NCBI GenBank assembly: GCA_036149055.1
Contig: JAYZQJ010000041.1
Location: forward strand, 1 to 20,146
Length of the DNA stretch: 20,146 nucleotides
Direction: 5' to 3'
Source: Myxococcota bacterium
GTDB taxonomy: Bacteria > Myxococcota_A > Polyangia > Polyangiales > Sandaracinaceae
Each line of letters begins with the position of its first letter. Positions within the stretch are counted from its first letter, which is position 1. A program made the translations under genes and the position numbers. Under the pieces are notes generated by a model. That model searched no databases. It saw only the letters and a program-made list of their open reading frames with translations, and was not told the origin of the DNA. This document shows, in pieces, positions 1-19,990 of this stretch.

Positions 1-280
1 GACCCCCTCGCCCAATCGCGGTGATCCGGATGCGGCCACTGGACGACGCAGACGCCCGTGACCCTCGGAATGAACGCCATTTCGTGGCTGACGCTCACGG
101 CCAACATGCTCGCCTGCCTACGCATCAGCGCGCCGGTTGCCCGTCGCGCTGCAAGGCTGGCTACCGGCCTGCCGGGCTCGGCTTTGACCGGGTGGGATTC
201 GCACCCACAAGACACCTCTTCCAAGTTTCGGTCGCTACCGCATCACTCCCTCCCCTCGGACCAGCAGTGCCTGGTCGCAC
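1..280 (-). mobile_element. Group II intron, 5' portion (domain I); continues beyond the left window edge
   Basis: The minus strand from 280 reads GTGCGACCAGGCACTGCTGGTCCGAGG..., the canonical GUGYG 5' end. It contains a GNRA-capped hairpin GTGGGT-GCGA-ATCCCAC (192-208), a GCAA-capped stem CAGCGCGACGG-GCAA-CCGGCGCGCTG (~125-150) and an AGCCACGAAAT motif. An EBS1 stem-loop (34-63) follows, whose loop pairs with the adjacent 5' exon. The intron-encoded protein and domains V/VI are not in the window. Confidence 0.88.
34..63 (-). other. Predicted EBS1 stem-loop of the group II intron (loop UCUGCGU, 52-46)
   Basis: The minus strand GGTCAC-GGGCG-[TCTGCGT]-CGTCC-A-GTGGCC forms an 11-bp stem with one bulge. 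The loop CUGCGU pairs with the last six 5'-exon nucleotides GCGCAG (286-281) by 5 Watson-Crick pairs and 1 G-U pair. Confidence 0.8.
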
Positions 281-436
281 CTGCGCCTCTGCGTCTCTGC
301 GAGAGACCAATTGCCACCGAAGCTCCGCACCTGGGTCGGAGCGCACGCCGAGCCCCGGCCACCCTCCATCCCGCGGCCACCCAGCCCCTTTGCGGCTTCG
401 CGGCTTGGCGAGAGCCCATCGCCGCCGAGGCACCGC
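281..436 (-). repeat. Dispersed ~110-bp repeat, two cores, the second interrupted by the intron
   Basis: The minus-strand cores CGCCAAGC-CGCGAAGC-CGCAAAG (410-388) and CGCAGAGA-CGCAGAGG-CGCAG| (301-281) are 109 bp apart. Their flanks (GCGGTGCYTCGGCGGC...GGCTCT, GGGGCTGG...GATGG...GCCGG.GCTCGGC) align by eye with the units at 19489-19990. Confidence 0.85.
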
Positions 437-483: not shown

Positions 484-1191
484 ATGACGAAGAGCTTCGT
501 GGCGGGAGCGACCGGGCTGACCGGGCGATCGGTGGTGGAGACGCTGCGGTCGAAGGGGCTCCCGGTGATCGCGCACGTGCGGCCGGACTCGTCGCGGCGG
601 GACGAGTGGCGGGCGCGCTTCGAGGAGATGGGCGCCGAGGTGGACGTGACGCCGTGGGACGAGGACGCGCTCGCCGAGACGCTGCGCGCGAAGGCGCCGG
701 ACGTGGTCTTCGCGCTCCTCGGCACGACGAAGCGGCGCGCGCGGCGGGCGGACGATCCGAGCGCGGAGACCTACGAGGCCGTCGACTACGGCCTGACCGC
801 GATGCTGCGGCGGGCGGCCGAGCGGTCCGGGCACGGGCCCCGCTTCGTGTACCTCAGCTCGATGGGGGTGAAGCCGGGGACCGCGAACGCGTACCTCGCG
901 GCCCGCGCCCGGATCGAAGCCGAGCTGCGAGAGGGCGCGTTGCCTTGGGTCTCGGCCCGCCCGTCCTTCATCGTGGGCGACCGCGACGAGACCCGGCCCG
1001 GGGAGGCCATCGGCTCGTCGGTGGCCGACGCGCTGCTCGGCGCGCTCGGCGCGGTCGGCGCGCGCTCGCTGAGGGATCGCTACGCGTCCATGACCGGGCC
1101 CGAGCTCGCCCGCGCGCTCGTCGCGATCGCCCTCGACCCGGATCGGGACGGCGAGGTCGTCGAAGCCGACGCGCTGCGCGCCCTCGCCTGA
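484..1191 (+). CDS. NAD(P)-binding Rossmann-fold protein (atypical SDR / NAD-dependent epimerase-like), 235 aa
   Basis: N-terminal FVAGATGLTG (GxxGxxG) motif, plus ALLGTT, VDY, FVYLSSMG, YxxxR and RPSFIVG segments typical of atypical SDRs. Start moved to ATG 484 because the ORF extension to 58 overlaps the intron and repeat. Confidence 0.85.
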   Translation: MTKSFVAGATGLTGRSVVETLRSKGLPVIAHVRPDSSRRDEWRARFEEMGAEVDVTPWDEDALAETLRAKAPDVVFALLGTTKRRARRADDPSAETYEAVDYGLTAMLRRAAERSGHGPRFVYLSSMGVKPGTANAYLAARARIEAELREGALPWVSARPSFIVGDRDETRPGEAIGSSVADALLGALGAVGARSLRDRYASMTGPELARALVAIALDPDRDGEVVEADALRALA

Positions 1192-17913: not shown

Positions 17914-19434
17914 GTGGGGAAACGAGACGATCGCAAGAAGCGGAAGCGGGCCGAGGCGCGCAAGACCAGCAAGGTGCACGTGCCGACGGCACCGGCTCCC
18001 TATCGCGGGCGCGTGCCGCTCGAGCAGATCAGCGAGACCTGCTGGCGCGTGCCGAAGACCGGCCCGATGCGGGTCGAGGGGCGGGTCTACGCCGACGAGA
18101 CGCTGCTGCCGTCACTCCGAGAGGACCGCGCGCTCGAGCAGGTCGCGAACGTCGCCACCCTCCCCGGCATCGTCGGCGCGTCCCTCGCGATGCCCGACAT
18201 CCACTGGGGCTACGGCTTTCCGATCGGCGGTGTGGCCGCGTTCGACCCGCACCAGGGCGGCGTCGTCAGCCCCGGCGGCGTCGGCTACGACATCAACTGC
18301 GGGGTGCGGCTCCTGGTGGCGGACGTGGACCTCGACGCCGTCCAGCCACGGATCGAGGCGCTGACCCAGGGCTTGTTCGAGGCGATCCCGGCCGGCGTCG
18401 GCAGCAAGCGCCCCGAGCTCGCGCTCACCGGACGAGACCTCGACGCGCTCATGGAGGACGGGCTGCGCTGGGCGCATCGCTCGGGCCTCGCCACCGCGGA
18501 GGACGTCGATCGGGTCGAAGAGAACGGGCGGCTCGAGGGCGCCGACCCCTCGGCGGTGAGCCCCCGCGCGAAGCAGCGCGGCGGCCCGCAGCTCGGCACC
18601 CTCGGGAGCGGGAACCACTTCGCCGAGGTCGGCGTGGTCGAGGAGATCTTCGACGCGACCCAGGCGGAGGCGTTCGGCCTGCGCGAGGGCGTCGTGACCC
18701 TGATGATCCACTCCGGCTCGCGCGGGCTCGGCCACCAGGTCTGCACGGACTCGCTCGGCACGATGATCCGCGCGTCCGGCGAGCACGGCATCGCGCTCGT
18801 CGACCGGCAGCTCTGCTGCGCCCCCATCCGCTCCCCCGAGGCCGAGCGCTACCTCGGCGCGATGGCGGCGGCCGCGAACTTCGCGTTCGTGAACCGCCAG
18901 GTGATGACGCACTGGGCCCGCGAGGTCTTCGACCGCCTCTTCGGCGCGACCCTCCGGACGGTCTACGACGTCTGCCACAACATCGCGAAGTGGGAGCGAC
19001 ACGCGGTCGACGGCAAGGAGCGACGCCTGCTGGTGCACCGCAAGGGCGCGACCCGCGCGCTCCCGAAGGACCACCCGCTCCTCCCCGACGCCTACCGCGA
19101 CGTCGGCCAGCCGGTGATCATCCCCGGCGACATGGGCCGCTACTCCTTCGTGCTCGCCGGCGCGAAGGGGAGCGAGGACACCTTCGGCTCCGCCTGCCAC
19201 GGCGCCGGCCGCGTGCTCAGCCGCTCCGAGGCGAAGCGCAAGTTCGGCGGCACGGACGTCATGCGCAAGCTCCGCGACCAGGGCGTCATCGTGCTCGGCG
19301 CGTCGAAGGCGACCGTCGTGGAGGAGATGCCCTTCGCGTACAAGGACGTCGCCGAGGTCGTCGAGGTCGTGCACGCCGGCGGCATCGCCGACAAGGTCGC
19401 CCGCATCCGCCCGCTCGGCTGCGTCAAAGGCTGA
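17914..19434 (+). CDS. rtcB: RtcB RNA ligase (archaeal/eukaryote-like, archease-associated type)
   Basis: Motifs MPDIHWGYGFPIGGV, GVGYDINCGVR, GTLGSGNHF, IHSGSRG, DVCHNIAK, HRKGATR, PGDMG, SACHGAGR and EEMPFAYKDV. Confidence 0.96.
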   Translation: MGKRDDRKKRKRAEARKTSKVHVPTAPAPYRGRVPLEQISETCWRVPKTGPMRVEGRVYADETLLPSLREDRALEQVANVATLPGIVGASLAMPDIHWGYGFPIGGVAAFDPHQGGVVSPGGVGYDINCGVRLLVADVDLDAVQPRIEALTQGLFEAIPAGVGSKRPELALTGRDLDALMEDGLRWAHRSGLATAEDVDRVEENGRLEGADPSAVSPRAKQRGGPQLGTLGSGNHFAEVGVVEEIFDATQAEAFGLREGVVTLMIHSGSRGLGHQVCTDSLGTMIRASGEHGIALVDRQLCCAPIRSPEAERYLGAMAAAANFAFVNRQVMTHWAREVFDRLFGATLRTVYDVCHNIAKWERHAVDGKERRLLVHRKGATRALPKDHPLLPDAYRDVGQPVIIPGDMGRYSFVLAGAKGSEDTFGSACHGAGRVLSRSEAKRKFGGTDVMRKLRDQGVIVLGASKATVVEEMPFAYKDVAEVVEVVHAGGIADKVARIRPLGCVKG

Positions 19435-19450: not shown

Positions 19451-19990
19451 CCGTTGGGTAGGGCTCCGGCGGCAACTGATCTCGCGCAGCGGTCCTTCGG
19501 CGGCATTTTGGCTCTCGCCGAGGCGCGAAGCCGCAAAGGGGCTGGCATGGCGCCGCGATGGCGGCTCGCCGGCGCTCGGCTGGCTGCCTCTTCGTTGGGC
19601 GGTGCTTCGGCGGCATTTTGGCTCTCGCCAAGGCGCGAAGCCGCAAAGGAGCTGGCTTGGCGGCGCGATGGCGGCTCGCCGGCGCTCGGCCGGCTGCACG
19701 CCGTTGGGTAGCGCTTCGCCGGCAACTTGGCTCTCGCAGAGGCGCGGAGGCGCAGAGGCGTGGGGGGGCGGCGGGATGGGCGCTCGCCGGCGCTCGGCCG
19801 ACTGCCTCTTCCTGGGGTCTTCGGCGGCTGCTCAATTTCACGCAAAGACGCAAAGACGCAAAGGGGCTGGCATGGCGGCGCGATGGGGGCTCGCCGGCGC
19901 TCGGCCGGCTGTACGCCGTTGGTCAACGCTTCGCCGGGTAGCGCTTCGCCGGCAAACTTGTCTCTCGCAGAGGCGCAGAGGCGCAGAGGC
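19451..19990 (+). repeat. Tandem array of a ~110-bp repeat with a triple-octamer core (CGCNRAGN)x3, five cores
   Basis: Cores start at 19516, 19626, 19735, 19841 and 19966 (spacings 110, 109, 106, 125). The first four are followed by variants of GCGCGATGGCGGCTCGCCGGCGCTCGGC, and all five are preceded by CTTCG(G/C)CGGC. Confidence 0.92.

Follow-up and report, generated by a model that had tools for sequence, protein, structure and literature searches.

A group II intron of a marine bacterium of the Myxococcota sits at one and the same spot of an intergenic repeat, and this repeat presents it with many harmless landing sites. We consider it highly probable that the element is an active, or very recently active, IIB-like intron which, with an endonuclease-less reverse transcriptase (RT)/maturase, retrohomes into this lineage-specific repeat. 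Bacterial group II introns persist by finding sites where their insertion does little harm, and the known solutions are single homing sites, insertion sequences (IS), terminators, attC sites and other introns. The first-pass annotation of the sequence had proposed the multicopy intergenic repeat as the landing pad of the intron. This proposal is largely supported: all 13 5′ junctions and all five 3′ junctions fall within the repeat, and orthologous sites are found empty. The repeat offers far more sites than are used, about 113 perfectly pairing last octamers versus a handful of copies, and so lends itself naturally to asking whether intron spread is limited by the supply of sites or by selection. 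In addition, the confinement of insertion to one of three near-identical octamers, without a visible EBS2, raises a question of recognition.

The window contains the 5′ end of a group II intron inside a repeat core

The window, that is, the whole stretch of DNA analyzed, comprises 20,146 nt and corresponds to bases 1–20146 of contig C41 in a 9.89-Mb assembly (289 contigs, 73% G+C, shortest contig 2,578 bases). Its minus strand from 280 to 1 represents the 5′-terminal 280 nt of a group II intron, including most of domain I. The intron is cut by the contig edge and, since the window starts at contig base 1, its leftward extension is impossible in this assembly. In Rfam, model RF02005 (group-II-D1D4-6) aligns to minus-strand positions 201..1 (77.5 bits against a gathering score of 49; E 2e-20), and the hit carries a flag for 3′ truncation where the sequence ends. 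It was the only match in a gathering-threshold Rfam scan of the whole window. The features to which the text refers are the following:

1..280, minus strand: 5′ part of the intron (RF02005, 77.5 bits on 201..1; 278/280 identical to the full-length copy L062)
45..53, minus strand: EBS1 terminal loop of 9 nt, GUCUGCGUC, placed by the Rfam alignment; EBS1 CUGCGU occupies 51–46
276..280, minus strand: 5′ splice-site consensus GUGCG, read directly (GTGCG at 280–276)
281..286, minus strand: IBS1 GCGCAG, assigned by pairing with EBS1; these final six bases of the 5′ exon open the third octamer
281..310, minus strand: repeat core split by the intron, TTGGTCTC + TCGCAGAG + ACGCAGAG + GCGCAG, fitting the genome-wide core consensus
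388..411, minus strand: neighbouring core of the same array, non-target variant TCGCCAAG-CCGCGAAG-CCGCAAAG, from direct reading and genome-wide variant counts
484..1191, plus strand: neighbouring gene encoding an NAD(P)-binding protein and oriented divergently from the array with the intron (PF13460 51 bits, PF01370 44 bits; start codon read)
17914–19431, plus strand: rtcB, encoding RtcB (PF01139, 558 bits), followed by an array
19624..19990, plus strand: four-unit repeat array downstream of rtcB, from sequence; two empty cores pair perfectly with EBS1

Direct reading placed the start of the intron, GTGCG at 280–276 on the minus strand, immediately after ...CTCT-CGCAGAGA-CGCAGAGG-CGCAG (302–281), exactly where the first-pass annotation had put it. 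The junction on this strand reads ...TTGGTCTC-TCGCAGAG-ACGCAGAG-GCGCAG/GTGCGACCAGG..., the slash marking here and below the point of insertion. The same GUGCG start is found in 8 of 9 full-length relatives from genome contigs, as well as in the related intron of G003, a complete genome of the same family. The sequence UCUGCGU at 52–46, earlier predicted to be the EBS1 loop, lies within a 9-nt hairpin loop, GUCUGCGUC (53–45), which aligns to the terminal loop of the RF02005 model hairpin. At the other end of the window, the array behind rtcB holds two intact cores, at 19735–19757 (CGCAGAGGCGCGGAGGCGCAGAG) and 19966–19988 (CGCAGAGGCGCAGAGGCGCAGAG), both of which continue CGCAG-AG as had been noted before. 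The corresponding insertion points in these empty cores fall after 19755 and after 19986.

A full-length copy encodes an RT/maturase with no endonuclease domain

The whole element is spanned by a 2,064-nt metagenome contig (L062), which reads CGCAG, a 2,020-nt intron and then AGGGGCGGGAGG. Rfam analysis of this copy yielded 107.5 bits for RF02005, whereas RF00029 reached 36.4 bits and so fell short of its gathering score (40). Its ORF is intact, with 430 aa from the ATG, and matches TIGR04416 with 344 bits (cutoff 300). In Pfam only RVT_1 passes (120 bits), the GIIM match is weak and sub-threshold, and no HNH or other endonuclease family was detected at E <= 0.1. About 15 nt separate the end of the ORF (residue 430) from domain V. 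The predicted fold (z = -5.1) comprises a hairpin for domain V and, for domain VI, a helix from which an unpaired A bulges out at a distance of 7 nt from the 3′ end. The RT/maturase ORF and domains V and VI, which the first-pass annotation had suggested seeking to the left of the contig edge, therefore all exist in the full-length copy, beyond the window. Over 98% of its length, the RT is 43–47% identical to plasmid-borne intron RTs of Halomonas, Methylocystis and Sinorhizobium. Judged by their listing, none of the Rfam-linked papers on D1D4-6 assigns this model to an intron class.

Searches of this genome with RF00029 and PF08388 gave no match, which we attribute to the missing interior contig and to the sub-threshold score of domain V/VI rather than to absence of the element. 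RVT_1 matched the assembled genome just once (C177:9781-10401, L001), inside an 821-aa open frame away from the contig ends. This frame was unmatched by the DNA searches with the intron and may encode a different kind of reverse transcriptase.

All junctions fall at a single position of the repeat core

The genome was searched with a 300-base query (20 exon plus 280 intron bases) and with the G003 intron, and metagenome contigs were scanned with intron bases 1–30, which returned 10 loci. The 300-base query matched three places in the genome: the window end in C41, the start of C42 (98.7% identical) and, over 67 bases, C198. The 5′ ends in C41 and C42 are identical to L062 at 278 and 279 of 280 positions, respectively. 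The G003 query recovered four 3′ ends, in C242, C143, C73 and C72, which are 100% identical to L062 over the 123–124 bases compared. The intron ends in these six contigs all sit at contig edges, and the lengths of the overhangs would fit a repeat collapsed at a k of about 127; in this lineage, short-read assemblies break at the intron and at the repeat alike.

Every one of the 13 5′ junctions (three from this genome and 10 from metagenomes) follows the fifth base of the last octamer in a repeat core, and none was found in unrelated sequence. Eleven of them read CGCAG/, one ACGCAA/ and one ACGTGG/. Pairing with EBS1 reaches 6/6 at 12 junctions and 5/6 at the remaining one: ACGTGG attains 6/6 through two G-U pairs, while ACGCAA attains 5/6. 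The single occupied core with four units carries the insertion in its fourth unit. On the other side of the intron, the 3′ exons (5/5) start with AG plus the G-rich tail and never with another octamer, so that the 3′ flank resumes the repeat as the first-pass annotation had anticipated. Specifically, the 3′ ends in C242, C143, C73 and C72 all close ...GGGGCTACTCGAC/ and continue with AGGCGGGG, AGAAGGGG, AGAGGTGG and AGGGGTGG. Because the searches used intron sequence only, the set of junctions is unbiased towards repeat flanks. The 13 junctions do not amount to 13 independent populations, since the metagenome contigs and this genome may be related samples. As the assemblies break in the intron, L062 is the one case in which a 5′ junction is physically joined to a 3′ junction.

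The position of the copies of this genome at contig edges would also be expected if the junctions were assembly chimeras, formed where two repeats meet at contig ends. We find this scarcely credible, as the same junction is present in two metagenome assemblies, including the 2,064-nt contig with the whole intron and both exons, recurs in contigs of further public runs, including a 2,027-nt contig in run X2, and obeys EBS1-IBS1 pairing.

At C198:62677-62848 (L012), the intron copy ends after nt 47 and runs into another multicopy element, which begins TGTTGCCGCGCAGGG and contains an imperfect hairpin. The same 125 bases of this element end C289 and C205, 80%-identical versions start C155 and C28, and the left flanks all differ. 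Judged by these matches, it looks like a second mobile element interrupting an intron copy.

Orthologous loci are occupied in a related population and empty in this genome

We compared the 600 bases upstream of the metagenome junctions with this genome. The flanks of L064, L066 and L067 are 98.8–99.7% identical to it over the whole 600 bases, whereas that of L063 is 95% identical within a tandem array, which leaves its orthology ambiguous. At these four places, this genome reads an uninterrupted CGCAG/AGATGGG, CGCAG/AGGGGCAG, CGCAG/AGGCGGGG and CGCAG/AGGGCACC, and its core orthologous to L065 has two octamers only. Occupied and empty loci differ by the precise presence or absence of the intron, without target duplication, which matches the prediction for reverse splicing. 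These three orthologous loci, together with the ambiguous fourth, are filled in a related population and empty here, and on this comparison of flanks they represent recent movement.

These comparisons also bear on the possibility that the intron entered a single unit once and that its copies were then spread passively, by array duplication or recombination and with no retrohoming. The repeats are indeed tandem and recombination-prone, and the C198 locus has a duplicated array segment. However, flanking sequence beyond the core of about 30 nt varies from copy to copy while intron copies are at least 99% identical, the orthologous loci differ only by the exact presence or absence of the intron at CGCAG/AG, and the insertions in the variant cores ACGCAA and ACGTGG still fit EBS1, at 5/6 and 6/6. 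Purely passive spread is thus very improbable.

The target is an expanded, lineage-specific intergenic repeat

The repeat is an intergenic unit of about 100 nt that forms head-to-tail arrays with a period of about 100–110 nt and has no visible coding capacity. Each unit begins with TTTGnCTC, to which three octamers of the form N-CGC-N-R-AG and then a G-rich tail are joined. Its consensus reads TTTGGCTC-TCGCAAAG-GCGCAAAG-CCGCAAAG-GGGnnGGGGGGCnGCGGGATGGnGGCTCGCCGGCG..., followed by variable sequence. Genome-wide, we counted 391 cores with at least three octamers (381 with three, eight with four and two longer), and the largest of the 127 clusters that they form has 14 units; no more than 500 bases separate 88 of the cores from a contig end. 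Neighbouring cores at most 600 bases apart comprise 219 direct, 42 convergent and three divergent cases. The last octamers read CGCAAAG (157), CGCAGAG (146) or CGCCAAG (78). By a codon-periodicity test, which is crude, the gene upstream of the array is co-oriented in 109 of 148 determinable cases. The array behind rtcB in the window exemplifies this arrangement, and the intron-bearing array at the left end is the opposite, with a divergent upstream neighbour (484–1191).

The pattern CGCARAGNCGCARAGNCGCARAG has 218 matches in this genome, nine in a same-genus genome (G001), seven, one and one in three members of the family (the seven in G018), and none in 36 further relatives, for a total of 40 relatives searched. 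By these pattern counts, the repeat is hugely expanded in this genome and is lineage-specific.

That repeat and intron are both abundant only in this lineage could be taken to mean that the intron made the repeat, either as carried flanking exon or as a copy made by its RT, and that the repeat was not a pre-existing target. Such an origin is extremely unlikely in view of the hundreds of intron-free units, compared with at least four full-length intron copies and one interrupted copy. In addition, G001 and G018, with nine and seven cores, contain no match to the first 280 nt of the intron (E <= 0.001), and the unit lacks similarity to the intron ends.

EBS1 pairing and a proposed further determinant of target choice

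EBS1 (CUGCGU) pairs with IBS1 (A/G)CGCAG over 6 bp. In the window copy, five of these pairs are Watson-Crick and one is G-U, in agreement with the pairing to the exon end GCGCAG proposed earlier. We compared 11 different introns of the lineage, namely the window intron, that of G003 and nine full-length loci obtained with a domain V pattern scan of genome contigs. Since the register of the loop shifts by one base between the window intron and its relatives, scoring by aligned column was unsuitable, and EBS1 was scored as the best of three registers, with controls treated likewise. Cognate EBS1 and exon paired at 6/6 in 9 of 11 introns and at 5/6 in the other two, whereas only 1 of 110 non-cognate combinations reached 6/6. 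This covariation backs the assignment of EBS1.

A second element of the first-pass annotation, that the U preceding EBS1 reads the A at the first position of the 3′ exon (+1), does not hold. The base 5′ of EBS1 (window 52) is U in 10 of 11 introns, whatever the +1 base, which is A in eight, C in two and G in one. As it does not covary with +1, this U looks, on the alignment, like a conserved IIB-type delta position rather than a +1 reader. No column of the 11-intron alignment, a MAFFT alignment that is perhaps imprecise, covaries or pairs with the +1 base as an EBS3 would.

Of the claim that EBS1 sets the target, the EBS1-IBS1 pairing stands, but the pairing is not sufficient alone. EBS1-compatible hexamers followed by A number 30,875 genome-wide, including 113 last octamers and 178 inner octamers. 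Among 800 inner octamers, these 178 pair at 6/6 with EBS1, and none has been seen occupied. Given 30,875 compatible sites and unused inner octamers, with only last octamers filled, an additional determinant must exist. The same figures weigh against an intron that has no preference for the repeat and inserts at any EBS1 hexamer, most of which the repeat would supply. EBS1 pairing is the sole recognition demonstrated, and even the insertion in the degenerate core ACGTGG still pairs, as such an intron would require; nevertheless, 13/13 5′ and 5/5 3′ junctions lie in the last octamer, which makes indiscriminate insertion highly improbable.

An EBS2, which the first-pass annotation could not identify convincingly, did not emerge here either: 6-mer and 5-mer complementarity scans of the 11 introns revealed no shared region. 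Domain I contains no stretch that pairs over 5–6 nt with exon bases -7..-16 in six or more of the 11 introns, the underlying MAFFT alignment being perhaps imprecise. By eye, the loop equivalent to that bearing EBS2 in a plasmid intron of S. meliloti offers a sole, weak candidate, GCGUU, which could pair with G(A/G)CGC at -15..-11, leaving a 4-nt gap before IBS1. Two other candidates were rejected. A 9-nt complement at intron nt 418–426 lies outside domain I and is at chance level by our estimate. A G-quadruplex in the tail is not a required extra determinant, since the motif occurs in only 61 of 382 cores and in one of four occupied 3′ exons.

It is conceivable, although we consider it doubtful, that beyond the hexamer the intron uses a determinant different from a canonical EBS2 to read the architecture of the repeat, namely the last octamer of the triplet beside the G-rich tail, that repeat arrays constitute a further target class, and that intron and repeat expanded together in this lineage. 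If so, tandem intergenic repeat arrays would join homing sites, terminators and attC sites as group II targets.

Proposed route of insertion

In the retrohoming that we favour, the intron inserts between CGCAG and AG of the last octamer. The excised intron RNA with its bound RT would reverse-splice into the repeat DNA and, because the element has no endonuclease, cDNA synthesis would be primed by the nascent strand at a replication fork, as in RmInt1. A further determinant, possibly RT contacts or cryptic pairing with the flanking repeat, would confine insertion to the last octamer. The arrays are probably cheap for the host because they lie between genes, mostly 3′ of a co-oriented gene. Their location after the 3′ ends of such genes would make read-through transcription of the intron possible. 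This would not cover transcription of the window copy, whose upstream gene is divergent.

Comparison with known group II introns

RmInt1 of Sinorhizobium meliloti has its homing site in ISRm2011-2 (PMC1802570); its RT lacks DNA-binding and endonuclease domains, and recognition relies on EBS-IBS pairing (PMC4075523). The intron described here resembles RmInt1 in its endonuclease-less RT, its multicopy, non-essential target and its EBS-IBS base pairing. It differs in that its target is a non-coding tandem repeat of about 100 nt with hundreds of copies, whereas that of RmInt1 is an IS gene. We take the RmInt1-like endonuclease-less IIB introns to be those that carry the class D label. A plasmid intron of S. 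meliloti, not necessarily RmInt1 itself, scores 137 bits with RF02005 and is 43% identical in the RT region over 98% of its length. Its EBS2 is readily recognized where one would expect it (AGAUUG versus CAATCT), unlike in the present intron, in which none is detectable.

Class C (IIC) introns are targeted to terminators or attC sites and have no EBS2 (PMC4424553, PMC12584367); the second of these papers covers groEL stop-codon introns and IIC terminator targeting. The present intron shares with them a generic, many-copy intergenic motif as target and, by the scans above, has no recognizable EBS2. However, IIC introns use a DNA hairpin with a short EBS1, whereas here EBS1 spans 6 bp, domain I is IIB-like (RF02005) and the targets share sequence, not shape alone. 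In the three-octamer 5′ flanks, reading by eye revealed no hairpin or inverted repeat directly upstream of the insertion point.

Among IS-targeting introns of Enterobacteria, such as E.c.I4 in IS629 and IS911, site occupancy ranges from 2 to 100% (PMC3522654). Homing into a repeated, dispensable element with partial occupancy is common to both situations, the copies here numbering about 4–5 versus 113 perfect last octamers. In contrast to an IS, which is a mobile gene able to ferry an intron between genomes, the repeat described here is confined to one lineage. Mobile elements tied to short extragenic repeats include a group II intron of Pseudomonas putida KT2440, which is REP-associated in 2/9 copies (PMC1525189), and the REP-targeting insertion sequences ISPpu9/10 and IS1397. 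The association in KT2440 is weak (2/9), and the excerpt of that report mentions no EBS-REP pairing (PMC1525189), whereas 13/13 junctions lie at one nucleotide position here.

Three target specificities are distinguished for bacterial introns, namely homing sites, terminators and attC sites, and nested introns have been described as a perpetual homing site (PMC4424553). Among titles and the beginnings of abstracts on introns in extragenic or intergenic repeats, in MITEs and in myxobacteria, from a coverage that leaves out most subscription journals, we found no homing into a non-coding repeat array. The retrohoming chemistry is ordinary; it is the kind of target that is unusual.

Occurrence, expression and related introns

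The intron was found, in whole or in part, in 20 public runs from 11 studies, 16 of which runs contain at least half of the sampled words; most rows among the matches listed are labelled marine or seawater. In three RNA-library runs from two studies, contigs cover 28, 28 and 14 of 30 bins of L062, and in one RNA-library contig 25 letters precede the first L062 base, so that this contig extends into the 5′ exon. Comparison of the contigs of three RNA runs and one DNA run with L062 revealed no spliced joint, uncovered bins carrying no meaning here. The intron sequence in RNA libraries (X15-X17, in the set of runs with X2) may reflect DNA carry-over. Word depth in one DNA run is 54 for the intron contig and about 5–12 for most flanking pieces, which is in line with several copies per genome, though word depth is no copy number.

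The intron of G003 (L014, G003:C1:8288500-8293000, minus strand, about 3861–1812) is related but decayed. Its RT ORF is broken, with an internal part on the opposite strand (inversion) and the C-terminal part in a different frame. The domain V pattern retrieved 45 loci from genome contigs, most of them from metagenome-assembled Myxococcota according to record titles, and many at contig ends. In one Archangium-labelled genome, five copies (L017, L026, L039, L046 and L055) share about 60–75 bases of 3′ flank and then diverge, the shared part being another short dispersed repeat. Four copies in Polyangium fumosum (L016, L022, L042 and L050) lie within paralogous sequence that extends over at least 260 bases, and in a third genome (L034, L044) the introns are found beside runs of CACGAC-like hexamers. 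These introns lack their 5′ exons, as their contigs stop within the intron. Judging from the shared repeats and paralogous flanks, multicopy targets seem usual among the related introns of Myxococcota.

In the AGC triad of domain V, a G-U pair is usual. Across L015-L059, and with the domain V of L062 at 1951–1983, the G of the triad faces an A (GGAUC) in 40 of 45 loci and a U in five, so that G-A replaces the usual G-U pair in most members, including the multicopy ones.
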